Program-made: the position numbers and the translations under genes
Assembly (NCBI GenBank): GCA_964016885.1
Contig: OZ024741.1
Span: 320,974,001-321,038,000 of the forward strand
Source of the DNA: Eledone cirrhosa
Lineage: Eukaryota
Length of the DNA: 64,000 bases
Direction of reading: 5' to 3'
In this document: piece after piece, positions 5,081 to 61,181 of the stretch
Layout of the letters: each line of letters begins with the position of its first letter
Numbering within the stretch: the stretch's first letter is position 1
Notes under the pieces: generated by a model
Seen by the model: only the letters and a program-made list of their open reading frames with translations
The model's database searches: none
Told to the model about the DNA's origin: nothing

Positions 5081-5269
5081 ATATATATATATATATAACG
5101 AAGGAAATGTGATAAGGAACCAGATGGACCATAACGCACCAAAGTAATCAATGCTTAGGGTAGTAGAGTGGGTAATAGGAAAAAGTATGAGTCCAGTCCA
5201 GAATTAGCTGTCGAAACAGCTTGAGCTCTGCTGTCGGGGTCATACTTGTTCCTATATATATATATATAT

Positions 5270-5521
5270 AGTAATAATAATAAATTTGAAGACTAAAAAC
5301 CAAAGAGGGCTGGATAAGGATAAATATATATCAAATATATAAGAACCGTAGAGCAAATATTTATTAAAATAACAGATTAAAGTTTAAGCAAGGAATCGCT
5401 GCTTTCACCCTTAACGGGATCTTCTGAGAATATTTTCTCTACGGTTCTTATATATTTGATATATATTTATCCTTATCGAACCCTCTTTGGATTTTAGTCT
5501 TCAAATTTATTATTATTACTA
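5270..5521. mobile_element. Mini fold-back insertion of the PLE family C 3' end
   Basis: 5270-5427 matches 28993-29150; 5430-5521 is an inverted copy of 5270-5352. Flanked by (TA)n. Confidence 0.75.
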
Positions 5522-5530
5522 TATATATAT

Positions 5531-5797
5531 AGGAGGTGAGTTTTATTGTAGCACAATAAAGCAATGCAAATATCGGATAAGTAGCACTCAACAGTTTATT
5601 GGACTGGAGTATATATATGTTGATTAGACACTACCTTGCTCACAAGTGTATTTTTAAGTGTTTTTTTTTAACCTTCATATCATGTCTCCCTATTTCATCT
5701 GATGAGAACGCAAATATCGTCCCAGGATGATATTTGTTTTTGAAATGCGCATAATAAAATACATGGAACTTTTTTAACCATCTTTTAATTTCTTCTT
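5531..5797 (+). mobile_element. Short non-coding HHR-bearing element related to the 3' end of PLE 34273-37634
   Basis: Starts aggaggtgagt and ends aatttcttc(TA)n. Last about 170 nt resemble 37480-37634. Confidence 0.7.
5691..5761 (+). ncRNA. Type I HHR (family D)
   Basis: TATTTCAT-CTGATGA-[gaacgcaaatatcgtc..gatgatatttgttttt]-GAAA-TGCGCA-TA-ATAAAATA. Confidence 0.75.
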
Positions 5798-7610: not shown

Positions 7611-8030
7611 TAATCGAATATCATTATTAATATTCGAAAAACTCAGATTACATGTATTGTATTCAGCCATGTAAAGCGATAAACTTTTTGTGAGTTATTT
7701 GAATATGGCAAAGCCGGCCATTAATTGCTCGAAGACATAAAACTGACTGGCCTATCTGCTGATATGCAAATTTGGCTGATCGGGCGGTCTGTTAATATGC
7801 AGATCAGCTCGATCAGTCATTGTATATTTTAGAAAATATCATATATTTTCTCTAGCTCTGACAGTTGGCAGGTAAGCAATATACTGTACTGATGAAGGGT
7901 AATCACCAGGAAACATTAATGTTTGAAGTTCTGTTTACATGCCAACACAAGAGCAAGAATGACGGGGTCATAATAGCCAACGAATCGAATATCATTATAA
8001 ATATTAAAAAATCTCATATTACATTTATTA
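7611..8030 (+). mobile_element. HHR-containing non-coding unit, partial tandem (family E, diverged copy)
   Basis: Inverted homologue of 9552-10117. aatcgaatatcatt...attaca is repeated at 7612 and about 7983. Confidence 0.7.
7884..7928 (+). ncRNA. Type I HHR, degenerate (family E)
   Basis: CTGTA-CTGATGA-agggtaatcaccag-GAAA-CATTAATG-TT-TGAAG. Confidence 0.55.
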
Positions 8031-8034
8031 TATA

Positions 8035-8718
8035 CTAGCATTAAAGCCCGGCGTTGCTCGGGGTCAGGAAGTTATCAAAGTTAGGTTGCACCACCCATTT
8101 TATGGCAGCACTTTTTTGTCTGCCAGGCACTGGGTGAATGAATTGCAGACCTGGACTGCCGAAGCAGGAGCTGCGCCAGCAGTGACAATTGTAGTTTCGC
8201 CTATGGATATTATCTCTGTGCAAAGACGTGTTGAAATTTATTGTTTCACAGTACTTACGCAACACCCGCGTAGACGATGCCAGCCGAACAACAGAGCTGC
8301 GATGGAGTTGTTCTGCATGGTTGTCTAATGTGTGTTTTCTAAATTTAAGACAGTAGGGAGTGGTGTGATATGGGGGGCGAGTTAGCTGATGTTTCTAGCA
8401 GGTTTAGTGACCTCATAGAGGATATGTTTTCTAAATTTAAGACAGTAGGGAGGGGGGTGATATGGGGGAGAGTTAGCTGCTGTTTCTAGCAGGTTTAGTG
8501 ACCTCATAGAGGATATTATTGTGTGTAGTAAATGAACTGATACTTCTTTCTTCCACGTTCGTTGAGAGATGTTTTAAAACAGATTTATCGTTATTTTCTT
8601 TGTTGTTGAATAAATTTATCTGTTGCTTTTGAATAATTGTTGTTTCGTATGAAATGTAATAAGTTCTCTTTGTCATTGAAGTAAATAAATGTTTGACCGT
8701 TCCACACTCAAAAGCAAA

Positions 8719-9530: not shown

Positions 9531-9551
9531 TATATATATATATATATATAT

Positions 9552-10115
9552 AAGAGAAAATTTCGCTCTACATGTCTGAACACAATAAATGTAATCTGAG
9601 TTTTTCGAATATTAATAATAACATTCGATTCGTTTGCAATTTTGCAAACAAGCCTCAATTTTATAGCCATGTCAGTAGAATGAACACTTCATTCTTGCTC
9701 TTGTGTTGGCATGCGAACAGAACTGCAGACACTAATGTTTCTGGATATCACCCTTCGTCAGTACAGCTCACTGTTCACCTGCCAAACTCTCAGAGCTAGT
9801 GAAAATATATGCTATTTTCAAAAATACACAGTGACTAATCGGCCTGATTTGCATATTAGCAGACTGGCTGATCAGTCAGATCTGCATATTAGCAGATTCA
9901 CTGATCAGTCAGATTTGCATATCAGCAGACTGGCCAGTCAGTTTCCTGTATACGAGCGATAAATGGCCGGCTTTGCCAAATTCAAATAAAAAAGAGAAAA
10001 TTTCGCTCTACATGGCTGAATACAATAAATGTAATCTGAGTTTTTCGAATATTAATAATAACATTCGATTAGTTTGCAATTTTGCAAACAAGCCTCAATT
10101 TTATAGCCATGTCAG

Positions 10116-10117
<2 letters not shown>
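9552..10117 (-). mobile_element. Retrozyme-like 440-nt HHR unit present as about 1.3 copies (family E)
   Basis: About 126-bp direct repeat at 9552-9678 and 9992-10117, with one HHR in between. (TA)n on both sides. Confidence 0.7.
9723..9766 (-). ncRNA. Type I HHR (family E)
   Basis: CTGTA-CTGACGA-aGGGT(gat)ATCCa-GAAA-CATTAGTG-TC-TGCAG, with a GUC cleavage triplet. Confidence 0.7.
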
Positions 10118-10633: not shown

Positions 10634-10649
10634 GTTATGTAATAAACAA

Positions 10650-10707
10650 CATTTACCAGTGGTTTCTTGAAGGCAGATATTTATATCTGTCCTCAGTCGT
10701 CAGAATG
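10650..10707 (-). ncRNA. Type I HHR (family F)
   Basis: CATT-CTGACGA-cTGAGGaCAGATAT(aa)ATATCTGcCTTCAa-GAAA-CCACTGG-TA-AATG, within an about 180-bp segment between (TA)n tracts. Confidence 0.7.
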
Positions 10708-10804
10708 AATAAATGACATGGTGTTTTTATTGACATAACTAATAAGCTCTGTATCCTACATAGACCACTCTCTTTTCCTGTACCTTTCCTGCGGAAATAC
10801 TTCA

Positions 10805-15820: not shown

Positions 15821-16358
<538 letters not shown>

Positions 16359-17604: not shown

Positions 17605-17662
<58 letters not shown>

Positions 17663-17664
<2 letters not shown>

Positions 17665-17855
17665 AGATCAGAAGATGGTTAAAAGAGTTCCAAGTATTTT
17701 ATTATGCGCATTTCAAAAACAAATATCATCATGGGATGATATCTGCGTTCTCATCAGATAAAATAGGGATACATGATATGAAGCTTAAAAAACACTTGTG
17801 AATAGTGAAGTTTTAAATCAACATATAAATAAAACATATAATAAAACTCACCTCC

Positions 17856-19138: not shown

Positions 19139-19271
19139 TGTGTGTGTGTCTGTGTATTGTTGTCTGTTTATATACTATAAACATATAGGAGTCTCGCTAT
19201 GAAAGAAAGAATGTTTTTCGTAACGAAAAATAACTTTTCTCTAATTCTCTCTATGTGCAAGTCACAGATTT

Positions 19272-19358
19272 TGTCAGTAACGGTCGAGAATGCCAGACAT
19301 CGCTGTTTCAAGATTCATTAATCTTTCATCAGTGACATTCACTCAACCGGTACTGACA
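19272..19358 (-). ncRNA. Type I HHR with intact core and extended bulged stem I (family G)
   Basis: GAATGTCA-CTGATGA-AAGATT(aatg)AATCTT-GAAA-CA(GCGA)TG-TC-TGGCATTC. Stem I continues CGGTTGA/TCGACCG and TGTCAGTA/TACTGACA after a 2-nt bulge. Confidence 0.85.
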
Positions 19359-19623
19359 TGGAAATAGATTTTGCGTGATGAACATTTCATATATGTGTGT
19401 GTGCGCGCGCGCGCGCGCGTGTGTGTGTGTGTTTGTGCGTGCGTGGGTTTGTGTGTGCGTAAAGAAAACGGAAAACCACTAAGCAAACAATACCGTACAA
19501 TGAAGATATATATTAGTTTAATGCTTGATATAGTAGGAAAATAAATAGACAGAGAGATATAGAGACAAATGTATATATGTGTGTGAGTGTGTGTGTATAA
19601 AGAATGAGAGGGTGGAGAGAAGG

Positions 19624-19655
<32 letters not shown>

Positions 19656-19714
19656 GACGTAAGTTAAGAACATTTTTAAAAAAATTAAAAATTAACTTAC
19701 TTACTAAAATTTTC

Positions 19715-19796
19715 ACTCCAACTAATTAGTTTCTGTAATGGGATAAAGATAGTTACATGATGTAACCATCGAGAATTCATTACGTCATCAGGGAGT
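19715..19796 (-). ncRNA. Type I HHR (family H, unit 1)
   Basis: ACTCC-CTGATGA-cGTAATG..GATGGTTACA(tca)TGTAACTATC..CATTACa-GAAA-CTAATTAG-TT-GGAGT. Confidence 0.8.
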
Positions 19797-20257
19797 CTAT
19801 TCTCAGCTAAGTCTCCAGGCAATGCGCGGACACTAGGGACTCATGTAAAAATAATAATAATTCGGTGGATGGAACAGCTAGCGGGGACTGAATTCCATGC
19901 ACTGAAAAAGTTCGCTGTCTCTGGTCAAATGGCAGATTCTAAAGAATCAATCACGTGACACTGAGGCTAGTCGGAAGGAGTGGGTTGGTAAGATAACAAA
20001 AGCCTACTACCAGACCTATGAATTAGTAGTGGATTTGGCAGGTTTGCTCAACAAATATATAATTTGGAGATAAATATATAGAATTAGTATATCTACCAAC
20101 ATATGCGTACAGATGTACACTAATGCTAGCAAATACATAAGTTATGTCATAGTACCTAGGTGGTTCAATGCAGGAGGATGCAGAACAATTATATGAAAGA
20201 CGTGAAATAAGAAAATTAAAAAAAAAATTAAAAATTAACTTACTTACTAAAATGTTC

Positions 20258-20339
20258 ACTCCAACTAATTAGTTTCTGTAATGGGATAAAGATAGTTACA
20301 TAATGTAACCATCGAGAATTCATTACGTCATCAGGGAGT
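20258..20339 (-). ncRNA. Type I HHR (family H, unit 2)
   Basis: Identical to 19715-19796 except for one stem II loop base. Confidence 0.8.
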
Positions 20340-20672
20340 CTATTCTCAGCTAAGTCTCCAGGCAATGCGCGGACACTAGGGACTCATGTAAAAATAATAA
20401 TAATTCGGTGGATGGAACAGCTAGCGGGGACTGAATTCCATGCACTGAAAAAGTTCGCTGTCTCTGGTCAAATGGCAGATTCTAAAGAATCAATCACGTG
20501 ACACTGAGGCTAGTCGGAAGGAGTGGGTTGGTAAGATGACAAAAGCCTACTACCACATCAATGAATTAGTAGTGTATTTGGCAGGTTTGCTCAACAAATA
20601 AATAATTTGGAGATAAATATATAGAATTAGTATATCTACCAACATATGCGTACAGATGTACACTAATGCTAG

Positions 20673-20703
<31 letters not shown>

Positions 20704-21116
20704 CATAGGTAGATTGTTGTATTTTGGAATGTTCATGCTGACAGATGGTTTGAATTTCCCTTCAGGGTTTATCATTAATGAGGAAACTAATCCATTCTTC
20801 GGCTGATTAAGCTATCAATAAGCTATTTATCTAATTATCAAAGTTCTTTGATTACATATTGTGTGATATTTTGCCCTCTCTGACACCTCTTCGCCTCGAC
20901 ACTCACTTCGGGTATCCATCTCTTTTTTTTTCTTTATCGAAATTCAGAAGTAAATAGACATTTACCCGTGATAATATGAAGACGATAGTGATGATAATCA
21001 TTTTTGGAATGGCTCTGTTGCCTTTAATGTTGATAGTGATAATGGAATCCGTTATAGCAGTCTATGTGATGTTGTTGTGATTAGGTTGGATTTGTTATGG
21101 TTGTGATGATGTTGAT

Positions 21117-21454
21117 CAGAGGTTCTCAAATTGTGGACCCTTCACGGCCGGGTAAAACGCTCAGCGCCCACAAACCCTATTTCCAGAGAGACTTCCTTAC
21201 AGGCAAATTGTCAAAAATATATAACAAATAAAACCATTAATTCATATATAATAAATAATATAACATATGCCATGTATAAATAAATATTATATATTTTTAT
21301 TTTACTATATTCATATATATGTATCATTTGATATTTAATATACTATTATATCATCTCTACCACCCCCTTAGTCCCCTTAGGCCCCAGAGCCCCTTTGGAC
21401 CTTCTCAACCTCCCACCAGGGTGGGGGCGGTAGTGTCCACTTTGAGAACCTCTG
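21117..21454. mobile_element. hAT-superfamily MITE
   Basis: TIRs cagaggttctcaaa(t)tgtggac / gtccactttgagaacctctg. 8-bp TSD atgttgat at 21109-21116 and 21455-21462. Confidence 0.9.
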
Positions 21455-21478
21455 ATGTTGATGGGGAGTTGATTAAAA

Positions 21479-23871: not shown

Positions 23872-23927
<56 letters not shown>

Positions 23928-24085
23928 ATACTTTGGGAGGGTCATGTTGCCAATAAGAAACACACGCACCAGTTGCTTTCACTTCAATTTATTATATATT
24001 TATAAATTTATAAATTTACAAATCTACAAACTTATAAATTTCTGGTTGGTTGGTTGGTTCCACAACCAGATAGTTGTTTATATAT

Positions 24086-24130
24086 AGTCATAGTCCTTTC
24101 GTCACACACTCTGTGACCTCTTCAGTGACT
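24086..24130 (-). ncRNA. Minimal type I HHR in PLE 3' UTR (family I)
   Basis: AGTCA-CTGAAGA-g-GTCACA(gagtg)TGTGAC-GAAA-GGAC-TA-TGACT. Confidence 0.75.
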
Positions 24131-24334
24131 GGGGATTCCTTTCTTTGTTTCTGTGCCTTTCCTTTCTTCTGTCCTACGCCATTTTGTTTCTGTGTGTGTG
24201 TTGTGTGCTCAGTTTGCGCATGCGCCACATCCGGGTGTCTGTGTGTGTTTGTGTTCATTTATCTATTTGTTTATTTATTTACATGTTGTTGGTTGGTTGT
24301 TTGTTCTATGTGTGTGTGTGTTTTCATTTTGTCC

Positions 24335-27300
24335 TTAATTGTAAGTTGTGATGTTGCTGTTCCACTCATATTTTCTATTTAATTTTGGTTGTAATTCTTT
24401 TATGCTTACTGCCTCTGTAATTTGCCTAAACATTGCATCTTTTCTGTGTGTGGATTCTATTTTTATTTCTATGTTCTCTAATTTACCCTTGTGTTCTATC
24501 TTAGCATGTTGGTAGAGTACAGATGATTCTTTATTATCTTGAAGGTCTCGCCAGTGTTCATTTATTCGTTCCCCTATACTACGAGCTGTCTCACCTATGT
24601 ACACTATATTTTTGTTTCTACATTGTCCTTCAGTACATCTTATGCTATACACTACATTTCTAGTTTTACAGTTAATATGGGGGCTTATTTTACAGGTTAT
24701 ACATTTCTTATCTATACATGAGGGTCTTTGGAACGGGTATGTCTTGCTAATAAGTGTTTTTACGGAGGTACCTGGTCTTTCTACTATCTTAATATTGAGT
24801 TTATGTTTATTTAGGGCCCTTCTAAATTTGTAGGCTAGTTCGCCTCTAGGGGTTGTATTGATGAACATTACACTCTGGTATTTATTGCTATCATACCATG
24901 AGTTTATTCTATTGGCCTTGTTCCTAGTTCTTTCTATTCTATTCCAAAATTTGCTCCTATACAAGGGGCAGGTCCCATTTATGTCATTATTTACCATTTT
25001 TTCCCATTTGGTTCTGGCTTCTCTATACACTCTGATTCTATCTCTCTGATTGTAGCCAGAGAACTGCATACGGTGGATGAAGTGTTGTATGTGTCTCTCT
25101 AGTTCTTCGGGGTTGCACATGCGGGACACATTTCTCATCACCCGTACCAAATCCGCAATCAGTATGTTGATTTTGGTATGGTCCGAAATGGCCGAGTTTC
25201 GGTGGATCAGATGTTTGGAAGTCATGGGTTTGGCATAATGGGAATGAAGGATTTGTTTTGGTTGTTAATGGTATCTAACCAGAGCTCTGTGTCTAGTACA
25301 GGTAATCGATGGTTGGGGTGTCTACTTGGGTAGTCTATAGTAACTCTAATGCTCTGGTGGATGGAGTTTGCTATTTGCTGGATGCTTTCCATTGTGTTTT
25401 TCTCTAGTTCCTGACTGTTCTTTAGTGGGGGTGTCTTAACTACGATGTTTATATCATCTACGTAGCGGGAGTACATTATCAGGGTTAAGCTGTCTTCTAA
25501 TTGTTCTTTAAGTTTTTGTTTAAGTCTACTGTCCCACCATACCATGAATAAGTTAGCTATGTCGCCTGCAATGCTAACACCAATGGCTGCTCCTTCCTCT
25601 TGGCCATATGTTTTTCCATTAAATTTGAACATATGTTCCTTAAGGGTTAATTTTATGCTGGCCCCTACCGCATGTGCAATCATTTTCTTCAGTTCATCGT
25701 GGTTTTCGGGTGTCCGTATGGCTCTGGTCCACCCGTTCCATCTATCTGTGTGGGTTTTCTTGGCCATTGAGGTAATGGTAGGTGGTCTGCCTCTTGCTGG
25801 TCTTGTAGGGCACAGGTTGCTAAGGTCATAAGTGTCTAGGTAACTATTACTATGGGTAAGCTTAAGTAGAAGTCCCAGCTCACTGGTATCAATCCCACGG
25901 AACTCAACCTTGCTCTCGCTGATCATTTCTACGCATTTCTCCACAGCAAAATCCACGTCAATAGATGGATACAGGGACACAACATCCATACTGCCTATTA
26001 TGCAGTTTGTTAGGTCCCCAGATCGGTTACTCACGCCGATTCTGCTGAGGAGGTCCTCCGTGCTGTCACATGCATCTGGGGACATCTCAATGATGGGGCG
26101 TATGATCAGGGAGAAGAAGTAGGACAGTCTGTAGTTACTAGCAATGTTAGTTCCACAGACTGGCCGTGTTGGTGGTCCCGCGACAGGGTCACAGCCCGTT
26201 TTATGTTCTTTTCGAAGCCCATACAACGCCGGCACGTCATTGTTCCAGGCCTGGAAATTGTTGGCAGTCCTTTTGTTGGGCTGCATTATATTCGTCCACA
26301 TCACCATATGGGCATTGAGGGCTTTTTCTCTATCCTCATGCTCCTGTGGTGTTACCTCTCTTGTGTTAGTGATGTGGGGTTGCATTGCCTGGATGTAGTT
26401 TGGCAGGCTGTCAACCGACATTCTGCCAGACTTGTCTGTTGGAAAGCATGCTATCTCTCCGCGAGCGCTGCATGAGCTTACGCAAGCCATTTGCAGATTT
26501 TTCTCCCAGTTGCTGGGCCTCTATTCTATTATGCTTCTTGCTATACTATTCTATAATATTTCTAAGTTCGGATTTAGCTATACTAAATTGTGCTTCTGTT
26601 TGTTCATCGACCTGCGACGGCAACTGCGTGCGTTTGTTAAATGGTAAAGTCGTGGCGTGGACTCGTCGCAGGTCGAATGATTTATCGGAGGGATTATAAA
26701 ACGGAGAGTTCCAGGCTGCTGCTTTATGTGTACTAGTGCTATTGTTATTGTTAGTTGTGTTGTTTCTATTTCTATTTCCACCAACAGCCTCATGGTTGTT
26801 TCTATGTCTCTCATAATTACTCCTGTCTCTTTCCACTGGCTCAATGTTGTTATCTACCCTATTTTGTGTGTCTGTGTGTTCGTCTTGGTTATTCTCTTTG
26901 TTCTTAGTCTCCCATCTCCTTTTCCTTTTAATCTTATTACTTTCCCTTATTTCTCTGATTTCTGTGCTACTGTCATTACTTGTTTTCTGTGTCTGTGTGT
27001 TTGTTAAGATTGTGGTGGTGGTGAGAGGCATTGAATGCGTGTGTGTTGTTGTTGTTGATGTGTGCTGTTGTTGATGTGTGCTGTTGTTGTCTCCGTGTGT
27101 GTTATCGTTGTTGTGTGTGTTGTTATTGTTGTTTGTGTCTGCGTGTCTGTTGTTGTTGTTTCTGGGTATGTTGCTATTGTTGTTGTTGATGTGTGTGTTG
27201 TTGTTATTGTTGTTTGTGTCTGTGTGTCTGTTGTTGTTGGGATGTGTGTTGTATATGTGTGTGCGTATATTGTTGCTTTTGTTTTTGATGCTCCAGCGTA

Positions 27301-27868
27301 GTTTTGTAAATGCTTTTTCTATTTCAGACAGACAACTAATCATATTTACCTTCTTGAATGTCGCAAATTCCGGCGGCAGACATAACACAGACATTTCATC
27401 ATTATCTATTTTTGCGTTCCCACAAATGTTGGTGTTTTTGTTGTCGAACTCTTCTGATAATGAGGTATCGGCCATTTTGATACCGTCAATTTTGTCGGGA
27501 TATCTATTGGTATACTCTATAGTATCCTGATTTAGCTTTGCCTGTTTAAGCCACTTTAGTTTCCTGTTAAAGTGCTTATCACATTCTTGAGTAATGTACT
27601 GTTCTTCGGGGCGTATAAGGCTTATAAATATTAGTTTCTCTGTTGGTGTGGTGATTCTAGCTATTTCTTGTATTAGGTTACGCTTTTGTTTTTCTTGATG
27701 ATTTAATTCTCTATAGATCTTCTTTTTTATGTTTAGAATTAAAGTTCGTTTTAGCCTATCTGCTTGTTTTTTGGTGAGTTGTAATCTTCTAACGTCGGTA
27801 TTGATGGCGCACAGCTTTATGAAGGATAGTTGTCGAGATGTTATGGTTTTTCGTAGACAACAGAACAT
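24335..27868 (-). pseudogene. PLE polyprotein (N-terminus, RT, Zn-finger linker, GIY-YIG), frameshifted
   Basis: RPVCG, GSMDVVSLYPSID, GAAIG, YSRYVDD, LPVLD; then CxxC..NCKTRNVVYSIRC..YIGETARSIGERINEH. Confidence 0.9.
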
Positions 27869-27880
27869 GGGACCTGCCCC

Positions 27881-28510
27881 TTGTATAGGAGCAAATTTTG
27901 GAATAGAATAGAAAGAACTAGGAACAAGGCCAATAGAATAAACTCATGGTACGATAGCAATAAATACCAGAGTGTAATGTTCATCAATACAACCCCTAGA
28001 GGCGAACTAGCCTACAAATTTAGAAGGGCCCTAAATAAACATAAACTCAATATTAAGATAGTAGAAAGACCAGGTACCTCCGTAAAAACACTTATTAGCA
28101 AGACATACCCGTTCCAAAGACCCTCATGTATAGATAAGAAATGTATAACCTGTAAAATAATCCCCCATATTAACTGTAAAACTAGAAATGTAGTGCATAG
28201 CATAAGATGTACTGAAGGAAAATGTAGAAACAAAAATATAGTGTACATAGGTGAGACAGCTCGTAGTATAGGGGAACTAATAAATGAACACTGGCGAGAC
28301 CTTCAAGATAATAAAGAATCATCTGTACTCTACCAACATGCTAAGATAGAACACAAGGGTAAATTAGAGAACATAGAAATAAAAATAGAATCCACACACA
28401 GAAAAGATGCAATGTTTAGGCAAATTACAGAGGCAGTAAGCATAAAAGAATTACAACCAAAATTAAATAGAAAATATGAGTGGAACAGCAACATCACAAC
28501 TTACAATTAA
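27881..28510 (+). pseudogene. Inverted duplicate of the PLE GIY-YIG domain
   Basis: Near-identical to the C-terminal part of ORF 24335..25225. Confidence 0.9.
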
Positions 28511-28714
28511 GGACAAAATGAAAACACACACACACATAGAACAAACAACCAACCAACAACATGTAAATAAATAAACAAATAGATAAATGAACACAAACAC
28601 ACACAGACACCCGGATGTGGCGCATGCGCAAACTGAGCACACAACACACACACAGAAACAAAATGGCGTAGGACAGAAGAAAGGAAAGGCACAGAAACAG
28701 AGAAAGGAATCCCC

Positions 28715-28759
28715 AGTCACTGAAGAGGTCACAGAGTGTGTGACGAAAGGACTATAACT
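28715..28759 (+). ncRNA. Minimal type I HHR (family I, inverted copy, one stem I mismatch)
   Basis: AGTCA-CTGAAGA...GAAA-GGAC-TA-TAACT. Confidence 0.65.
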
Positions 28760-29104
28760 ATATATAAACAACTATCTGGTTGTGGAACCAACCAACCAAC
28801 CAGAAATTTATAAGTTTGTAGATTTGTAAATTTATAAATTTATAAATATATAATAAATTGAAGTGAAAGCAACTGGTGCGTGTGTTTCTTATTGGCAACA
28901 TGACCCTCCCAAAGTATAACAATATCGGTTTCAACACACGATTTCAGATAAAGAATCTTGCTAAACAAATTCAGAAACGAAATATATATATATAGTAATA
29001 ATAATAAATTTGAAGACTAAAATCCAAAGAGGGCTCGATAAGGATAAATATATATCAAAGATATAAGAACCGTAGAGCAAATATTTATTAAAATAACAGA
29101 TTAA

Positions 29105-29730: not shown

Positions 29731-31847
29731 ACGTATATAAATAAATAAATACGTATATAACAAGCGCACACACATACCTACATGTAAAACACAAATGTTC
29801 GGAGACGTAAGTCAACCAAAACATGAAGTACACATATACACATACCCTACATACGTACGAACCTGCATACTCACACAGACGCAAAACTCCCGTATACACA
29901 TAACCAAACCATATGTACCAGAATGTATAAAAATATACGCCATAACATATACAATCAAATATACGTACGAGAAGGTATACGTACCTTCACAAAACATACA
30001 GGTAATATATACTTACCTATGCAAATAAGTAATGGTATAAACAAAACATATACTTAGCTACCACATCAAGACGTAAAATATTCACGTATAGATCGTACTA
30101 TCCGTTAGGGTATAACGTGGGGCTGTAATACAGGAAAGTTTTGTGCAATTTATGTTTACAAGCCGAAATTGCCTCAGATTTTTGTTTAAGATGTGGTCTG
30201 TGGCGTAGAGTATTTCCAGGGCCTCAGCGGCGCAGAGGTCACAAGGTCTTTTATTTCCGTTATACGATCTAGCCCTAGCTAGGATCTCCCAGTGTAACTT
30301 ATATTGGGTGTGGTTGTCTTTTAGACTCCAGATATAAGCTGAAAGTGACGTCATATTCCTTCTTAGAGGGTAACGAAAAGAATGGGTATGCATGTAAAGA
30401 CGCTGCTTGAATCTATTGGCGGTTAACCCTATGTAGGCCCTACGGGACGTGGGTGTTTCAACCTTACATTTGTAGACAATGTTACTAGAGAGGCATTTCC
30501 CGGATAGGGGGCAATCAACCCGATTCCTACAATTACAGTTAGTACTAACTACGGGGTTGCACGTGTTCCTACGGCTAGGTAGTTGAGCTAAATTTGAAGC
30601 TGTGATGTTATGTGCAAGGTTAGGTAGGAGTCGTAGAGTAAGAAATTTTAATAGTATTTCTATTAAAAATTTAACTATATTTATGTGTAGGGGGAAAATA
30701 CTTCGTAATAAGGGAAAGAAAGATCTTAGCTAATGGTGTGGCCACCTCCATATTATATGCTGGGTTATACCAACAAATGCGACGGGATCTATTTATTCTA
30801 GGTCTATTTTCGTACTCTGTATATGTTACCTTATCGACAAATCCACTTCGAGCCAGAGCTTCATTGTAATAAGTGGAATGGTCGTTGAAAATATGCTCGT
30901 TAGTAGATAGATGGGAAAGCCTCAAAGAAACGTTTCTTACCAGGTTCTTGATTATGCTGGCAGGATGGTTGGAATGCTTACTTATGTAATTAAGCGTATC
31001 ATTCGGCTTTCTATACGGGTAATACAACCCATTCAATAAATTGAGGGTAACGTCGAGGTAATTAACGACCGAGAGATTGGCCTCAACCTGTATAGAGAGG
31101 TTGAAGCCTTTAAAGAAGGCTGTGAGTTCTTTTCTGAATCTGTCTCAAGCACGAGGTCCGCACTTAGTCATGGTCAAAAGACCATCATCACGGTTCAAAC
31201 CACCGCCCGCGTTGGGTAATTCGTCCTTGATAGAGAAAAGAAGGAAAAGGCCGATCAGATCAGTAACCTCCGCAGAATCGCAGGCGCCCATACTCACGTC
31301 GAATGGGGTACTATTGGATTTTTTAATCCAAATAGAGTCGTCGAAATTAATCACCGACTTACGGGCATTGAGGATGACATCAACTTCGAAATCCTTAACC
31401 ACTGTGAGTGTTTTAGCGAAATTGATAGCTCTAAGGAGAAGTGGTAAAGTGATGGAGGAGTAGTAATTGTTGATGTCGAATTGGATAAAACAGCAATGTT
31501 CCTTGTTACATATGCCGTTGAAGCAATCAATCACCGCGAAAGAATTGTTCCACAGTGCAAGAGGGGCCAAACTTCTAATTTCAGGTATAATTCTATCAAG
31601 AAATGTTTTACTAAGTCTACCTAAATCGGACTTCGTAGGGTTAATAAGCCGAATAGAGGGGTTGTTCGGAAAATTGGATTTGTGATCCTTCAGGGTAAAG
31701 TGGGGAGAAGTAGGGTCCAGAGGTTCGGTCCGGTCCAGGATGTTGAGATCAGATGTGATTTTAAACCCAGCATCGTTGATTTCATTGATGACGCACCGAT
31801 TAGTTTTACGGTAATCCTTAGTTACAGCATTATGTAGTAGTTGATGT

Positions 31848-32052
31848 AGGGCGGTGGATTGGCAGGGCGGTGGATTGGCAGTATCGGTAGAGGGTCGGAC
31901 GCCATGCTTTCCAGCATAGTTACGTCCCTTTACGATCTGAGTTCAAATCCCGCCGAGGTTGACTTTGCCTTTCATCCTTACGGGGTCGATAAAATAAAGT
32001 ACCAGTAATGCACTGGGTAATTGCTGGCCTTGTGCCAAAAGTAGAAACAATT
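31848..32052 (+). mobile_element. Full-length tRNA-derived SINE inserted in the PLE ORF, with 18-bp TSD
   Basis: A-box-like tggcagtatcggtagagg and B box gagttcaaatccc. TSD attatgtagtagttgatg at 31829-31846 and 32050-32067. Central core resembles the Meta-type SINE domain (from memory). Confidence 0.9.
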
Positions 32053-32769
32053 ATGTAGTAGTTGATGGTAAGTACTGCGCTCCACTTGATATAGGTTGCC
32101 AGTTTTGTCGGAATGGACGTGCACGGCATTAGAATCCTTAATAGAACGAATGCTATTCTTCAGGTCCTGCTGGAAGGAATTGCTCCTATTCCGAAATTTG
32201 ATACTCCGTATGAGTTCCAAGACATCATTTTCGAAGGGTAGCAATGCTGGATTACACGGGGGGTTATTATAGGTTTTAAACCCAAAGTTGTCTGCTTTTC
32301 GCGGATTATCGAAATAAAAGGCACGCCAACGCAACCTTTTATGCATACATACATACATATAGACAGACAGACTGACATACATACATACATACATACATAC
32401 ATACATACATACATACATACATACATACATACATACATACATACATACATACATACATACATACGTATTCACCGTGTTACAGAAACTGCACTTGGGGAAA
32501 TTGTAAAGTACGACAACTAATATACTCTGTGCTTCAACCCTTACGGATTATCGGACAATTTTTCACAATCTAATACTACGCTTTCTTCATAGACAAAAAT
32601 GGTTGTCGGTGTTCTAACTGAGATCAAATCATAGTTAAAAGTATGGGGGTGATTAATTATCACTAACGATGTATAGAGATATAGGGATTCTGAGGTAGAT
32701 GTGACGTGATCCCAGCTTAGAATACCCACTGCAAGGCTTATGTGTATTTATTACAGCATATTACATATG

Positions 32770-32806: not shown

Positions 32807-32810
<4 letters not shown>

Positions 32811-33325
32811 TGGTTGAATTTTACTTGTTCTGCTTATCTTAATATTAATGTTCTGGTATATCAAATTATTACCATTGAACAACCTTGAATCATAGACAAC
32901 CTATGTATTTCTAAGGGTACTTAGTATCTTTGGACATATTAACTTCATTCATTATACTCCGTTATGTAGAGAACAAATCTGTTGTTCTATTTAGCTGCTA
33001 TTTTTTTTTAGTAGTAATTATAGACAACAAGTCTATGGTTTTCCCGCTTTTACTTCGGTCCAGTTTACATACGGGTCACTTTTACGACCTTTCAGACCTG
33101 TATTAGCTGGCAGGAGGTCATATATTTTATCGTTCCTGGGTCGTTTAGCCCTAGGAAAGGAAAATGCTTCTCTGATGAGCTTTGGTTTTCCATCAGAAAT
33201 CCGTTGGATTCTGGGGTTTTACAAAGCGAAACTGATCAGTAAGGGCCATTAGAAGAGGTAAATGTTTATATTATATTTTTTAATTTATTTTGAAAAATTG
33301 GTTGAATTTTACTTGTTCTGCTTAT

Positions 33326-33328
<3 letters not shown>
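32807..33328 (+). mobile_element. Retrozyme-like 488-nt HHR unit with 34-nt terminal redundancy (family J)
   Basis: aaattggttgaattttacttgttctgcttatctt at 32807-32840 and 33295-33328, with (TA)n on both sides. Confidence 0.75.
33164..33249 (+). ncRNA. Type I HHR (family J)
   Basis: ATGCTTCT-CTGATGA-GCTTTG..hairpin..CAAAGC-GAAA-CTGATCAG-TA-AGGGCCAT. Palindromic stem III ACTGATCAGT. Confidence 0.8.
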
Positions 33329-34224: not shown

Positions 34225-34275
<51 letters not shown>

Positions 34276-34310
34276 GAAGAAATTAAAAGATGGTTAAAAA
34301 AAGTTCCAAA

Positions 34311-34380
34311 TATTTTATTATGCGCATTTCGAAAACAACATCATCCTGGGACAAAAATTGTGTCCTCATCAGATAAAATA
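34311..34380 (-). ncRNA. Type I HHR (family D)
   Basis: TATTTTAT-CTGATGA-ggacac..tgttttc-GAAA-TGCGCA-TA-ATAAAATA. Confidence 0.8.
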
Positions 34381-35950
34381 AGGTAACATGATATGAGGCC
34401 TAAAAACACTTGTCAACAGGGAAGTGTCCAGTCTACATATGACAAAAATATAAGAGTAAGAGAAAAATAGGAAAAATGAAGAAAAGGAAAGAAGAAGGAA
34501 AAATGAAAACGAAATAAAAGAGAGAAAAAAGAAAGAAAGAAGAAGGAGAGAGAAAGAGAAAGAGGGAGAGACTTTTGATCAGGAACTCTGTCAAAATGAA
34601 AAACAGCTGTAAATAACGGCTAAGAAAAAAAAGATTGATGAGGTGTATGTGCGAATATTACAGATGGTATTCAAATATTAGAGGTCAGGAATATAGAAAC
34701 TGGGTATAATATTATATTGGGTTTAAATACTAAAAATTGGATTAAGAAGTGTAAAAATGTATTAATAAAATAAAATAAAATAAATTTAAATTAAATTAAA
34801 ATAATTATAAAAAAAGGTTTTTCAAATAAAATAAAATAAAATAACATAAAATAAGATAGAATAGTATTAAAAAATAAAAATAAGAATAGTCTATCTATAT
34901 CAAAATTAAAAATTAGTATTAGAAATCTATATATGTGGTGTACTATTTAATTATTATTTTATATCAACAAGTAAATAAAGGAAATTGCAGAAAGGTTTAT
35001 AAACGTAGAAAGACATATGACGTCATAGTTTGTTTACAAAATCTACGAAGGTTTGCACGAAAATGTAAGGCTATAGAGAAAAAAGGTGAAAGGCTTAAAA
35101 TATGCTGAGAAAACTGAATTAATACATTGTAGAATATAATGAAATATGTGTGAAAAAATGTGTGGAAAATATATATATGTGTAAAAAATTAACCGTTATT
35201 CATGGAATATGTTATAGAACATTATCTATATACTTTGTGAAAGGTCTTGAAAGATTTATGATTACAAAGAGCAAATAAATATGTACGTCTATTTATTAAA
35301 GAGTTGAAATTCGAAATAATGGTAAATTTTTCAGCTAGACATAAATTACAAACCCTAGATATGGAAGCATTGGAGTATGGAGAAGCGTTGCAAATTTTAC
35401 GCAAGAAATTTCGTAATTACCGGCCTATATTACCCATACAATAAGGATAATGAGAACCTAAATTACGTTAACTTTAAATCAAACCACCCTAATAATGTTA
35501 AAAATGCTATAGTCAGAAGTGTTGAAAAAAGAATTTCTAATTTATCCTTTAATAAAGATATCTTCGATGCTAATGCCAACTATTATAATAACGCGTTATC
35601 TAGGGCTAGATATCCAGGCAAAATTAGATACACTAAGGAAATTAATCTTGGCAGAACTTATAGTAATGTAGCTAGTAATAATCATACCAGTAACAAAAGG
35701 AGGAGACCTAGATATAAAAATATCCTTTGGTACAACGCTCCCTTCTCTCTTTCCTTTATTAATAATATCCCTAAATTATTTTTTCGGGCTTTAGATAACA
35801 GCTTCCCCCTTCACATATATAAAGCAAGATTTTCAATAAGCATACCATTAAATTCTCATATTCCACTACTTCCAACATTTCTAAAATTATCTCAAGACAT
35901 AATTCTAAAATAGTAAATAATAACTCATATGCATCCAACCATGAGAGTCA

Positions 35951-36100
35951 TAATAATTGTTTCTACTTTTGGCACAAGGCCAGCAATTACCCAGTGCATC
36001 ACTGGTACTTTATTTTATCGACCCCGTAAGGATGAAAGGCAAAGTTAACTTCGGCGGGATTTGAACTCAGAATGGCAAGGGCCGTAACTATATGCGTCAA
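35951..36100 (-). mobile_element. tRNA-derived SINE inserted in the PLE
   Basis: Same core and tail as 31848-32052. Confidence 0.85.
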
Positions 36101-37314
36101 CAGTATAAGACTCGACGTCAATGTAAACTCTAGGCAAAATAACACAAATATAAATACGACGTCAAACGTAACTTTGTGGAGTGCTTCAAATAGTAATGTA
36201 AATCAGGTAACCTTAGCACCTCCTTTAGCTAATTCCACCACTCCAGTTCCTAATATAATTAACCCTGGGCCACTTGCAAATAACTCTGTTAATAATCTTA
36301 ATCGTAAATGCAACTGCCCTATTAGAACTAATTGACCTCTTAGTAATTTCTGTCTCGATAAAAACCTAGTATACGAATGTAAAGTGGTAACTAGTACCAA
36401 TACTTATACCTACATTGGCTCTACTTCTACCTCTTTTAAAGCAAGACTCTATAATCATTCTTCTACATTTAAATATCCACTTAAAAGGACCAGCACCGCA
36501 CTCTCAGAACTTATTTGGTCCTTAAAAGACAAAAACATTAATTACGAAATTTCTTCCGTAAAATTTGCAACGCTTCTCCATACTCCAATGCTTCCATATC
36601 TAGTTTTGTAATTTATGTCTAGCTGAAAAATTTACCATTATTTCGAATTTCAACTCTTTAATAAATAGACGTACAGATTTATTTGCTCTTTGTAATCATA
36701 AATCTTTCAAGACCTTTCACAAAGTATATAGCTAATGTCCTATAACATATTCCACGAATAACGGTTAATTTTTACACATATATATTTTTCCACACATTTT
36801 TTCACACATATTTCATTATATTCTACAATGTATTAATTCAGTTTTCTCAGCATATTTTAATCATTTCACCTTTTTTCTCTATACCCTTAAATTTTCGTTC
36901 AAACCATCGTAGATTTTGTAAACAAACTATGACGTCATATGTCTTTCTACGTTTTTAAACCTTTCTAGCAATTTTCTTTATTTACTTGTTGATATAAAAT
37001 AATAATTAAATAGTATACCCCACATATATAGATTTTTAATAGTAATTTTTAATTTTGATATAGATAGACTATTCTTATTTTTATTTTTTTATTCTATTCT
37101 ATCTTATTTTGTTTTATTTTATTAATACATTTTACACTTTTTAATCCAATTTTTAGTATTTAAACCCAATATAAAAATATACCCAGTTTCTATATTCTAA
37201 ACCTCTAATATATGAAAACCATCTATAATATTCGCACATACACCTCATCAATTTTTTTTTTTTTTTTAGCCGTTATTTACAGCTGTTTTTCATTTTGACA
37301 GAGTTCCTGATCAA

Positions 37315-37362
<48 letters not shown>

Positions 37363-37527
37363 TTCTCTCCTCCTTCTTTCTTTCTTTTTCCTCTCTTCTA
37401 TTTCTTTTTCCTTCTTCTTTCCTTTTCTTCGTTTTTCGTATTTTTCTCTTACTCTTATATTTTTGTCATTTGTAGATTGGACACTTTCCTGTTCACAAGT
37501 GCTTTTAGGCCTCATATCATGTTACCT

Positions 37528-37597
37528 TATTTTATCTGATGAGAACACAATTTTTGTCCCAGGATGATGTTGTTTTCGAAATGCGCATAATAAAATA
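37528..37597 (+). ncRNA. Type I HHR (family D)
   Basis: TATTTTAT-CTGATGA-gaacac..tgttttc-GAAA-TGCGCA-TA-ATAAAATA. Confidence 0.8.
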
Positions 37598-37722
37598 TAT
37601 GGAACTTTTTTAACCATCTTTTAATTTCTTCTTTTTTATATATACTCGAGTTCTACCACTGTTGAGTGCTACTTATCAGATATATGCATAGTTTTATTGT
37701 ACTACAATATTACTCACCTCCT

Positions 37723-37800
<78 letters not shown>

Positions 37801-39878: not shown

Positions 39879-39893
39879 AAGAAATAAAAAAAA

Positions 39894-39930
<37 letters not shown>

Positions 39931-40172
39931 TTTTCTTTATTAACCACAAGGGTTCACATAAAGTAGACATTAAGGACAGTACAGGACAATACAGGACGGT
40001 ACAAATGGGCATTTCTGCGTGTAAAAAAACAGAGGTTGAAATAAAATAACAAAGAAAAATTCCCCAATAGGGGGGAGACTTCCAAGGGACATTTGTGGAG
40101 AAAGCCCATTAAAAGACCACAGTGGCCCTGACCACCAGGGCAAGTGCCCTCTCCCAGTTTTCCACCTTTAAT

Positions 40173-43100
40173 TTACAGACACATACTCAGAGAAGGCCCA
40201 TTCATTCGGGCCATACTTGCTTCTCTCACCCATCTTTCAACAAAATGCTGGGAAGAGAGCACTCCCCTCTCTACCCTGATTTTCCTTTTCAAATGAAATT
40301 TGAAAAAGTTAATCAGGGCATCACCGAAGAGGTAAGTGCTCGTCTTCAGCCCTTTCAAACGTGTCCACCATACTATCTCTTTCGCCATGGCCACCAGACA
40401 GATAAAAACTGCCTGCCCTTCCAGGCTAAAGGAAGGGGGCGGGGCAATCCTCACGATGGACTCAGCTGATAGCTGGATCCGTCCTACACGTGACAGCAGG
40501 TGTTCGACATAAACCCACAAGTCAGCAATGCTCGGACACTGGACGAGTGCGTGCAGGACGGTTTCGTCGCCCTGCGCGCATCTCGGACATGCCCGGCTGA
40601 CGGCACCTCCATGCCTGTAGAGTTTATCCCGAACTGGCAAAGCTCCTCGGTAGCACTGCCAGGCCAGGGATTTCTGGAAGTTGTCCATAGGCCCCGGCCC
40701 GAAAGTCCTTCCGAAGAGATTGGCTAGTTGATTTTCGTCGACGCCTAGAGTTTCTCCAAGTACGTCGTCGCTCTTCCCCTCCACTAATCCCCTATAGAAC
40801 GCCAAGGTGGAGTTTCCACCGATCACATTGCCCGATTGGTCGAGGGCTGTGAGCGCCTGAAGACATTCCAGTCTCCAAGCGCTCCCTCTCGGTCTTCGCT
40901 TGACCCAGGACTGCAGCTCCGTCAAGGAGACGAGCTGGGGAAAAACGTGTCTAGCAAACGGCGACCACACCTGATCACCGTCGAGGAAGAGGTGGAGATG
41001 TCGTAGCCTGAGCGCGTGTCTGCGCATCATCAGCCACGGCATGCCCAGCACTCCACGTAGCGGGTGTTGACAGCAGATGGACCGCCTGACCATCGGAGCG
41101 CGTCCCTTCCACAAGAAGCGAAAGAGCAAACGCTCCAGCGCAGTCAGGCGGGGCTTAGGACAAGGTACGACGGTCAGGCGGTAGTAGATGACGGATGCGA
41201 TGTACGCATTCGCCACCTCCGCTCGACCTTTCAGGGATAGCTTCCTCTCGGCCCATTTCTGGGTGAGAGAAGCCACCCTGCTCGTCACCTCGTCCCAGTT
41301 TTTGTCCGTCTGGAGGTCTGGACCGAACCAGACCCCTAGCAATTTAACCGGTCCGTCCGTCCAGCGCCCGACGACGTTGTTGGACGGCATGGACCTGCCT
41401 ATCCAGGTGCCGAGCTGCAGGCCCACTGACTTTTCCTGGTTGATCATTGCTCCTGTCACCGCTTCGTATTCTCTTAGTGTAGTGCCGATCGCCTCGATGT
41501 GTTTGGCGTTCGACACCACTACGGTGACATCGTCGGCATATGCTGACACGGATCTTCCGCATCCTAGTTCGCGCGGGACCCCCCTCAACGTCTCCAATTT
41601 GTGCAGTAATGGCTCGAGAGTCAATACGTACAATAGGGACGAGAGGGGACATCCTTGGCGGACCGAGCGTATGATGTTGAACGGTTCCGAAAGGTGACCG
41701 TTCACTCTCACTACAGAGCAGATGTCGCTGTGCATGGCAGCGATCCAGCCTCTGAAGACGGGCCCAAAGCCAGCCGCCCTCAGGACTGCCTCTAGGTAAC
41801 GATGGTCGACCCTATCGAAGGCTTTCGACTGATCTAAATTGATCAAAGACCCACCCGTGCCAGGTTCCCTAGCTACCATCTCTACGATGTATCGCATGAG
41901 GTGGAGGTTGTCGTTGATGGATCTGTCGGGAATGGCGCATGTCTGTGCCTCTCCCACCAGACCACCAACGACAAGCGCCAACCTCTTTGCTAGCACCTTG
42001 GCCAAAATCTTGAACTCTGTGTTTAGCAGAGTTATGGGCCTAAAATTATCTATGTTATCCCCCTTGTTCGGATCCTTTCTCAGCAGCGCCACCGCTCCTC
42101 GGCTCACAGAGCTGGGAATTCTCCCGTTCTGTTGCCAGTTGCAGTAGACGTCCGCCAAGAGGCCTCCGAACAAGTTTGGCATTTGTACGTAAAGTTCATA
42201 GGGCAGACCATCCAAACCAGGCGATTTACCCCTTGTGCAACTAGTCATTGCATCCCGTACTTCAGCGGTTGTTATCGGCTTTTCGCAACACTCCGCCTCA
42301 GTGGCCGTAAGCCGCGGCAGTCCGTCGAGGTAGACACTAAAGTCCATCCCTCGATCCGGCCCGCCACTGCCCCCGAACAGTTGAGCGAAGTGTCGCTGAA
42401 AAGCTTCACACATTTGCCCGGGATCGAGTAGCATGCGCCCGTCGTGGTCCACCAAAGACCGGATCGTGGCTTTGTTGCCACGACGCGCCTCCGCCACTCG
42501 GGCACATTGAACGGCTTTCGTCCCCTCGTGTCTGAGAGCACGAACCCTAGCTCTGACAACGCAGCCTTCGTGCTTTGCATTGAAGAATTGGTCAAGGGCC
42601 AATTTCGTCGCAAGTACGTCGGTCGCGATGCCTTTGCTAAGCGCCTCATCTAATTTTCTAACTAGTTCTCCCTCTGCTCTATTTTTCTCTATTGCTAAAG
42701 TCTTACTAAACCTAATGGACTCTATTCTAATTGCTCTTTTCAGAGCAAACCACCACTTGTTGTTGACGATGGCCCCCGTCAACGCCCGCTTAACTAGTTC
42801 GCTAATCCGGTCTCTCTAGGCCTTGCGCGCTGGTAAGGACGCGTTTAGCTTCCAGTAGCCGGGTCCTCGTCTATGAAGCCTATCTAAATCAAGCACACAG
42901 ATCACGAATTTGTGGTCCGTGTAGCTGACTATCTTGAATTGTGGACAGCCTATGCTAGACCTATCTATTTCCCTACAAAATACTCTATCTAGATATGATC
43001 TGGATGACCCTATGCGATTTGTCCAAATCCACATTGGTACATTCGGGAAATCCATTCGGTACCTGTCAGACAGTTCAAAACGTCTGAGCAGGTTGGTGAG

Positions 43101-43592
43101 ACTCTTGCACCCTCCTTCCCTATCCACTAATCCCACACAATCCCAGCGTGCATCTAAGATCCCGTTCCAGTCGCCCACTAACACTAAAGAGCGGGACGTT
43201 CCAAGAAAGGTCTCCAGACGCCGGAAGAAATCAGGCCGCCCTGCTCCTGTCGGGGCATAGACGGCCACTAACCTGAAAGCTTGCCCGTCTCCGCTGGTCA
43301 CGTCCAGCACCACCAACTTACCTTCTGGGTCCAGGAAGATGGCCCGTATGGCAAGATCTAAACCTCTCCGAAAAAGCACAGCAACTCCTCCCCCCGATCC
43401 CGGACGGCTGGGAGATGCGTACACATCGTAGCCGCCGAAGATCGGTGCGAAAGCCTGTGCTTCGGAGATTCTGGTCTCGCTGATGGCCACTACATCTATG
43501 TTTAGTGACCTGAGGTCGTTGAGCAGGTGGCCCTGCTTCCATGACGACCCCAAGCCACGCGCATTTATGCTGCCTATTCTGAGTGAGGTCAT
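40173..43592 (-). pseudogene. ORF2: APE endonuclease + RT + CCHC, with one in-frame TAG at 42816-42818
   Basis: SINARGL, AISET, VGDWN, SYLDRV, YTDHK; KSPGLDG, FRPITLLN, LDQSKAFDRV, VRQGCPLS, AYADD; CPRC..ETVLHALVQC. Confidence 0.92.
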
Positions 43593-43626
43593 GTTGAAAA
43601 GGAGTGGAAAAGATGGGAAAGACCAC

Positions 43627-45603: not shown

Positions 45604-45810
45604 TTTTTTCAAAGAAATTTTTTGATAATAATAAAAGTTTAAATTTTGGGCACAAGGCCCCAATCTTTTTGGGTGTCCTTTTCGGAAAACAATGTATGTG
45701 CGCTTATAAACAGTTAACAATAAAATTTTCCATAAATGACAATTTTTAACAAACGGAAATAACAAACCGTTGCGGAGCTCACGATGATACGATTTACTAC
45801 GTAGGTCGCC

Positions 45811-45880
<70 letters not shown>

Positions 45881-45906
45881 AATAAAATAAAAAAAAATAA
45901 AAAATA

Positions 45907-45960
<54 letters not shown>

Positions 45961-46146
45961 CATACACATATACACACACACACGCACACACTCACACACA
46001 TATACACACACATACATTAATAACAATAATAATAATAATAATAATAATAACAACAATAATAATAACGACAACAACAATAATAATATACATATACATATAT
46101 ATATACACACACACGCACACACATAAGCATATCTACACACACACAC

Positions 46147-49710: not shown

Positions 49711-49731
49711 AAAAAAAAAAGAGAAAAGAAA

Positions 49732-49786
<55 letters not shown>

Positions 49787-55787: not shown

Positions 55788-56074
55788 GTACATCACAAGT
55801 CTAAACACTAAAGATGCATGTGTGAGTATGTATGTTCTTTCTTGAACATGGCAGACCTTGTTGTCTCTTGAGGTCACTGGTTGTGACTTGGTGATAACTC
55901 GTATGAACATAAAGCAAGATAAATGCAACTGTAATAATAATAATAGTACACTATTAATAATTATTAATGCACTCGTGCAATGCCTGTGCGTGACGAATAT
56001 TTTTAAAGTGAGGAAAGACTGTGCACTGAGCCAATCCCACTTTCTGAGCGACAGTAGCTATAACCCGAAAAGAA

Positions 56075-56250
56075 GAAAAGATCAACATCATCGGTAACTA
56101 CTGAGCCGCAGGTTTTATGTCGGAGTTAACCCAGTTTCCTGAGATGCCTTCTCCTAGAAGAATGCCCTGACAAGGGCTAGGGGTTCTTCACTCCCAGTGG
56201 TTTAACTGCGCGATCGGGCATCCAGCCCGATTATTTCTGTCCCCGCGCAA
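56075..56250 (-). mobile_element. RTE-type 5' UTR fragment
   Basis: ctagcccttgtcagggcattcttctaggagaaggcatctc...aactccgacataaaacctgc, homologous to 39715-39795. Confidence 0.55.
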
Positions 56251-56390
56251 AAAAAAAAAAATAAATAAATAAAAAAAATGTTAAAAAAATTAAAAAATAA
56301 AAAATAATAATAACATTCATACATACATACATACATACATACATACATACATACATACATACATACATACATACATACATACATACATAC

Positions 56391-61135: not shown

Positions 61136-61181
61136 TGCTCTGATGAGTCCCACTTATAGTGCGGATGAAACAATGTTAGCA
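61136..61181 (+). ncRNA. Type I HHR (family K)
   Basis: TGCT-CTGATGA-GTCCCACT(tat)AGTGcGGAT-GAAA-C(aat)G-TT-AGCA. Stem I extends ctttat/gtaaag. Confidence 0.75.

Follow-up and report, generated by a model that had tools for sequence, protein, structure and literature searches.

At 19650-20672, on the minus strand of the window (the whole 64,000-nt stretch of Eledone cirrhosa DNA analysed here), a high-copy 543-nt repeat that encodes no protein and carries a hammerhead motif in each unit is present as a single insertion. The insertion amounts to 1.88 units (1023/543); within 19600-20750, the sole strong period is the offset of 543, at 0.82 matches against 0.34 for the next in rank. The segments 19650-20129 and 20193-20672 align without gaps and are identical at 465 of 480 positions, in agreement with the preliminary description of this DNA, which had proposed a near-dimer of about 1.9 units spaced 543 nt apart. 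Seven of the 15 unit-to-unit differences fall within the 30 bases adjoining the left end, and a 63-nt segment (20130-20192) in the middle of the insertion is single-copy. Read along the minus strand, a 5'-truncated unit of 480 nt is followed by a full unit of 543 nt. Both borders are (TA)n (19624-19651 and 20673-20693), as expected from the earlier claim of an insertion in (TA)n, and the left edge is ambiguous from 19647 to 19652 because the unit itself ends in TATA. The insertion is organized as follows:

19650..20672, minus strand: whole insertion, 1.88 units of the 543-nt repeat
20193..20672, minus strand: upstream unit, 480 nt, 5'-truncated, in a pseudo-LTR-like position; 465/480 identical to 19650-20129
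19650..20192, minus strand: downstream unit, full 543 nt; its 3' end abuts (TA)n
20130..20192, minus strand: single-copy 63-nt segment, likely the 5' part of the full unit
19624..19651: (TA)n target, 3' side, read from the sequence
20673..20693: (TA)n target, 5' side, read from the sequence

The tandem had been described as non-coding, and this holds: the longest stop-to-stop frame inside the element is 81 aa, tblastn with 100 Penelope-type proteins as queries gave 0 matches at E<=0.01, and the single ORF joining a reverse transcriptase to a C-terminal GIY-YIG domain, a feature of the autonomous Hydra clade, is absent from 19650-20672. The GC content of the unit is 36%, under the 45-50% retrozyme criterion. 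A Pol III origin was rejected (no A or B box on the minus strand, several internal T5 runs, no tRNA gene), and a bacterial promoter scan gave chance-level results of no relevance.

Each unit contains a minus-strand type I hammerhead motif, and the two predicted cuts lie 543 nt apart. In the motif, a proximal helix I of 5 bp, predicted to continue distally, is accompanied by CUGAUGA (20334-20328 and 19791-19785), by helix II, which occupies 51 nt and has a 7x7 internal loop, and by GAAA (20276-20273 and 19733-19730). Helix III is a 10-nt palindrome in both units, or 12 nt counting the cleavage-site U. The conserved core boxes are intact in both hammerheads, alongside the long helix II and a mismatch of C and A at positions 10.1/11.1, the base of helix II; the cleavage triplet is GUU in both units, with the cut predicted after U. 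Combinations other than G-C at 10.1/11.1 and a GUU triplet are known to slow hammerhead cleavage. Cuts are predicted after 20263 and after 19720, and the piece that they would release (20262-19720) is 543 nt long, so the predicted sites are spaced for the monomer that had been proposed. The downstream predicted cut site lies 69 nt from (TA)n, and the corresponding distance is 30-175 nt for nine other motifs in the window.

20237..20356, minus strand: upstream hammerhead, type I with extended helix I; core 20258-20339, C10.1 at 20327, A11.1 at 20277, predicted cut after 20263
19694..19813, minus strand: downstream hammerhead, type I; core 19715-19796, predicted cut after 19720
20264..20273: upstream palindromic helix III; in a dimer transcript, its predicted partner is 19721-19730
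19721..19730: palindromic helix III, downstream, a palindrome

A hammerhead descriptor identified 13 motifs in the window, versus a mean of 0.4 and a maximum of 2 in 60 shuffles. Helix III is a perfect palindrome of at least 8 nt in seven of the window motifs and in none from the shuffles. The reported presence of a hammerhead with a palindromic stem III in each unit is thus borne out by the boxes, by the palindromes and by this comparison. Rfam returned 0 matches for the window at the gathering score, and none of its 10 matches at E<=10 is a hammerhead.

The 543-nt unit belongs to a large dispersed multi-copy family and is not a single local duplication. Four public runs (X1, X4, X5 and X19) of the 21 listed were compared with 20130-21100; coverage of other copies was confined to 20239-20661, leaving out 20130-20238 and 20662-20712, including the termini and the tandem junction. 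In run X1, 1,443 contigs match the family, 258, 454, 558 and 173 of them being 99% or more, 95-99%, 90-95% and less than 90% alike, respectively. Run X5 contributes 37 matching contigs and run X4, which bears another organism label, 38, mostly 85-99% alike. The RAD library run X19 yielded 6,013 raw reads, with a depth of 432-2,133 over 20262-20657 versus 0-2.7 in the flank. The preliminary description had named a single-copy unit as one finding that would speak against it; the X1 contigs and the X19 depth reveal a multi-copy family instead, although read depth and contig numbers denote a large family and are not convertible to a copy number. Organism A of the reads may not be the species of the window, with a best word share of 0.52 and a patchy coverage of the flank (9/13 bins). 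Nine further organism labels also match the family weakly. No RNA runs are among the 21 listed, and the survey has no bearing on expression. In metagenomes, a 19-mer of the element gave three matches, a chance result, with no similarity past 19-20 nt, and a 23-mer gave 0 matches in viral and prokaryotic contigs.

In three contigs (X4, X5), (TA)n is attached to a TATA internal to the unit (20613, 20618), which could reflect permuted ends or microsatellite slippage. The X19 read ends at 20267, 20317, 20405, 20625 and 20628 were considered as ribozyme cuts and rejected: all fall on AATT sites and are therefore library cuts, and we infer that an AATT-cutting enzyme was used in preparing that library.

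Variation listed for the family avoids both the ribozyme and the predicted minus-strand fold, which supports constraint at the RNA level, as judged on modelled structures. The test used the best 40 of 174 variant rows, corresponding to 39 sites, and is limited by that selection of rows and by uneven depth. None of the 39 listed variable sites falls in the 45 core and helix positions of the ribozyme (P 0.01), and the variant-free positions include C10.1, A11.1 and U17; these oddities are therefore likely family traits rather than decay of one copy. Positions of the minus-strand circle paired at p>0.8 (165/423) hold 5 of the 39 listed sites where 15 are expected (P 0.0002), and outside the ribozyme the minus-strand pairs hold 3 of 35 (P 1e-5); for the plus-strand fold, the same test gives P 0.03-0.18. 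The five listed variants in firm helices comprise three that keep the pair, two that break it and none that is compensatory. No variant among the best 40 of 174 rows falls in 20625-20661, the 5'-most surveyed part. Alleles were checked in 19 of the 40 listed rows, picked by hand. At 14 checked sites the allele of the upstream unit is not the one that predominates in the family, by X1 as well as by X19; the minor allele is common to both units at 11 of these, arguing for one template or one subfamily, and at the other three the downstream unit carries the majority allele.

The predicted monomer folds better than shuffled sequences (z -3.8; 0/100 shuffles as good for the linear form and 0/40 for the circular form), with 60% of it predicted to be paired. 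For the 63-nt segment 20130-20192, pairing with the remainder of the unit is predicted (p 0.93-0.99), at a level not significantly beyond chance, as 5/60 shuffles were equally good. When two hammerhead copies are co-folded, the double hammerhead is predicted at -69.0 kcal/mol versus 2 x -28.5 kcal/mol, and an inactive dimer form that pairs A14 with U17 at -71.6 kcal/mol. Helix I is predicted with p 0.89-1.0 in contexts of up to 226 nt and with p<=0.02 in contexts of at least 438 nt, where an ACUCC decoy is predicted to capture its 3' strand. The active fold would cost 2.2-4.9 kcal/mol over the inactive one in long contexts and 3.8 kcal/mol in the circle, margins that are near the error of the method. 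The ribozyme may thus be weak, through loss of helix I in long contexts and U17-A14 pairing in the dimer. For comparison, one of nine predicted Xenopus dimers is reported to cleave in vitro (bioRxiv 10.64898/2026.07.22.740005).

19720..20262, minus strand: predicted 543-nt monomer, 36% GC, folding better than shuffles
19977..19981 (also 20520-20524), minus strand: decoy ACUCC that, by prediction, sequesters the 3' strand of helix I, turning the ribozyme off

The window also contains coding Penelope elements and further hammerhead units without ORFs; Hydra and Neptune motif assignments follow section 11 of PMC8557442.

24335-27943 (whole element 23920-28985): Neptune/Nematis-type Penelope with a CX4CxxC linker, frameshifted, ending on (TA)n
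About 30085-32547, minus strand: Hydra-type Penelope with DKT and CxCX5C, broken
35359-36551 (within 34228-37780): Hydra-type Penelope, assigned by similarity to the 30085 element, broken
558-2860: Hydra-type Penelope 3' fragment with an endonuclease at 2462-2142 (minus strand) and an inverted copy of its end at 2437-2855
32808-33328, plus strand: ORF-less hammerhead unit, period 488, exact 34-nt terminal redundancy, between two (TA)n runs
9546-10117, minus strand: ORF-less hammerhead unit, period 440, 132-nt terminal redundancy
About 7612-8047, plus strand: ORF-less hammerhead unit, period 371, 66-nt terminal redundancy

Among named homologues of the reverse transcriptase at 25222-26520, Octopus vulgaris proteins rank highest in identity (up to 78%), which makes an octopod host likely. 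The Neptune/Nematis-type element to which this region belongs has hammerheads at 24125 (minus strand) and 28720 (plus strand) and an inverted 3' copy that is 99% identical with about 57 extra bases at its end. The ends of the element at 34228-37780 are inverted and carry hammerheads at 34372 and 37536; an isolated 3' piece from that family is found at 17615-17838. The fragment at 558-2860 ends in a hammerhead (the 772 motif) with C.A at 10.1/11.1, located 65 nt before (TA)n, and its helix II region exceeds 100 nt; C.A at these positions recurs in the window motifs 2664/772 and 10703. The 3' non-coding parts of the Hydra-type elements in the window are about 1.1-1.5 kb long. No 3' sequence in common with the 543-nt unit was found among the coding Penelope elements of the window, and short motifs of the element gave only unrelated matches in the supplement of PMC8557442.

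The three ORF-less units sit in or beside (TA)n with 1.07-1.3-fold terminal redundancy. The units at 9546-10117 and 7612-8047 form one family (82% column identity) with different ends and a common internal junction, the pattern that circular permutation would give; closed ORF-less units therefore exist in this genome. The unit at 32808-33328 has a long helix II and a 10-nt palindromic helix III. Eight comparisons of the 543-nt unit with the other hammerhead units of the window gave scores of 19-31 versus shuffle maxima of 24-30, none meaningful. Single hammerhead-like motifs are also present at 10634-10802 (minus strand), 19160-19380 (minus strand), 60700-61313 (plus strand) and 348 (plus strand), most of them 30-275 nt from (TA)n. 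Palindromic (TA)n-centred or terminal-inverted, MITE-like sequences occur at 15821-16327, 5259-5531 and 21106-21455, and a cluster of LINE-type reverse transcriptase ORFs occupies 39883-57155, with a 1,048-aa ORF at 46646-49792 (minus strand) that holds an endonuclease and a reverse transcriptase in a single frame.

At the level of sequence, the element fits the non-LTR retrozymes as defined in PMC7229834 and bioRxiv 10.64898/2026.07.22.740005. Like the non-LTR metazoan retrozymes described there, it consists of tandem non-coding units with a type I hammerhead and low GC, is present in many copies, has a monomer predicted to be highly self-paired and co-occurs with Penelope-like elements. It differs from them in its long helix II with a 7x7 internal loop, the cut after U and the (TA)n target. 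The unit had been called comparatively large, which is true against the 150-450 bp of PMC7229834 (350-390 in mussel) and not against the 51-972 bp range of bioRxiv 10.64898/2026.07.22.740005, within which 543 nt falls. The axolotl HHR_Amex2 has a U.U mismatch at the base of helix II, where the element has C.A, and cleaves best as a dimer. The ribozyme is predicted to be blocked in the circle, which among animals PMC7229834 reports only for some mussel circles.

In its ribozyme style, the element resembles Hydra-clade Penelope elements (Hydra-1_Obim, Penelope-1_HM; PMC8557442), which likewise target (TA)n and carry near the 3' end a hammerhead with a 9-10-nt palindromic helix III, often mismatched at the base of helix II and often cut after U. 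File S2 of PMC8557442 lists 26 Hydra rows, 15 with such a mismatch (14 U.U, 1 U.C) and 10 cut after U, and four helix III pairs of Penelope-1_HM are identical to those of the element. However, the element has no ORF and a longer helix II than any of these Hydra rows, its C.A mismatch is matched in File S2 only by PLE-X1_cBra, and the Hydra-1_Obim ribozyme differs from it in sequence. The minimal hammerheads of Penelope pseudo-LTRs (PMC4209133) share with it a short proximal helix I, a long helix II and a palindromic helix III suited to dimers, yet they keep a G10.1-C11.1 pair plus one extra base where the element has an unpaired base on both sides, and helix I of the element is predicted to extend past an internal loop. 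The Chlamys non-autonomous elements, e.g., MRC1 (PMC8557442), are also non-coding Penelope derivatives with pseudo-LTRs and head-to-tail insertions; however, they are algal, mostly lack canonical hammerheads and match their autonomous partner at the 3' end, whereas the element has no such 3' match among the coding elements of the window.

We consider it probable that the element is a non-LTR retrozyme: a closed, non-autonomous, Penelope-derived tandem hammerhead element, with a Hydra-clade element as its likely mobiliser. Coding elements of Hydra type and of Neptune/Nematis type both occur in the window, and the latter also ends on (TA)n; the Hydra clade is the likelier partner, assigned by ribozyme style only because the unit has no sequence similarity to the 3' ends of these coding elements. 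The earlier idea of a retrozyme-like family is supported by its large family, its constrained ribozyme and fold and the presence of Penelope elements with the same ribozyme style and (TA)n target; the added suggestion that it may still yield circRNA is a prediction, made less secure by the inactive fold favoured in long contexts. Counting against the retrozyme reading, the units differ by 3.1%, with the differences clustered at the 3' end, whereas a fresh rolling copy would be expected to diverge less. The main alternative, unlikely but still with some weight, is that a template jump joined two 5'-truncated 3' ends of a coding Penelope element (543 and 480 nt) head-to-tail in one insertion, with no free-living unit. 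Penelope elements typically form partial tandems of truncated copies (PMC8557442), the ribozyme is of Penelope type rather than the canonical retrozyme type, and 543 nt could be untranslated region alone, since the 3' non-coding parts of the Hydra-type elements here are longer. Yet the two pieces would need truncation points no more than 63 nt apart, and the family is abundant and constrained even at its 5'-most part, 20625-20661, which is free of variants in the best 40 of 174 rows. The closed units at 7612-8047 and 9546-10117 also argue against it, as do the three X4/X5 contigs that join (TA)n in the manner of permuted ends, although slippage could do likewise.

That one monomer inserted and was later duplicated locally, or that the tandem is an assembly artefact, appears very unlikely. 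The family-minor alleles common to both units at 11 of 14 sites would suit such an origin, but on both sides the repeat stops where (TA)n starts, its single-copy part is central and the flank is unduplicated; the 15 differences rule out an exact assembly duplicate, and three other units show terminal redundancy of differing lengths. A miniature LTR element (a TRIM or LTR retrozyme) whose LTRs are 480 nt and whose interior is 63 nt is suggested by the 480-63-480 layout and by a plus-strand left copy that starts with TG and is followed by CA; however, the right copy lacks a CA end, neither a primer-binding site nor an adjacent polypurine tract was seen by eye on either strand of the element, no tRNA genes occur in the window, and the ribozyme is of type I where LTR retrozymes carry type III (PMC7229834), leaving this origin extremely improbable.

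For a non-LTR retrozyme of this kind, the following route can be proposed. Transcription of the minus strand through the tandem would bring two ribozymes together via the palindromic helix III into a double hammerhead, which would cut slowly. The 543-nt monomer would be ligated into a circle, in which the ribozyme would be mostly locked off; RtcB circularised axolotl and mussel monomers in vitro (PMC7229834). A Penelope endonuclease would nick (TA)n; the reverse transcriptase would prime on TA-rich sequence 69 nt downstream from the cut and, using a tandem or circular template, would keep copying past a single round, to 1.88 rounds here. Copying of a circle beyond unit length has been proposed before (PMC4209133). 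The insert crosses both cut sites; the template was therefore not a single cleaved linear monomer, and was a circle, an uncut tandem or a switched template.

The movement of animal retrozymes is still a hypothesis, for which a circular template and a Penelope partner have been proposed (PMC4209133, PMC7229834), and a link between retrozymes and Penelope elements by sequence is reported only in Xenopus (bioRxiv 10.64898/2026.07.22.740005). Our literature search found nothing on cephalopod retrozymes or on the Hydra clade as a mobiliser, and the literature on octopus hammerhead ribozymes, or on Neptune with non-autonomous tandems, describes no such family; the supplements of bioRxiv 10.64898/2026.07.22.740005 and PMC13282606 could list this family or a related one. 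In a 2026 repeat annotation of O. vulgaris, the words ribozyme and hammerhead are absent from the main text. The retrozyme class, to which the 543-nt element probably belongs, is already well known. A broader picture, possible though doubtful, is that octopod genomes harbour a swarm of unrelated hammerhead circles of 370-540 nt that parasitise Hydra-clade Penelope elements; the (TA)n inserts (1.07, 1.18, 1.3 and 1.88 units) would then be an end-permuted record of rolling reverse transcription of circular RNA, with the decoy keeping the circle of the 543-nt family intact. Since a family that targets (TA)n has sharp ends, a genome-wide census of starts and ends can separate rolling circle copying from template jumps at linear 3' ends. 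The style of its ribozyme points to a specific partner clade, and both the circle-template model and a Hydra partnership could be tested cleanly on this element.
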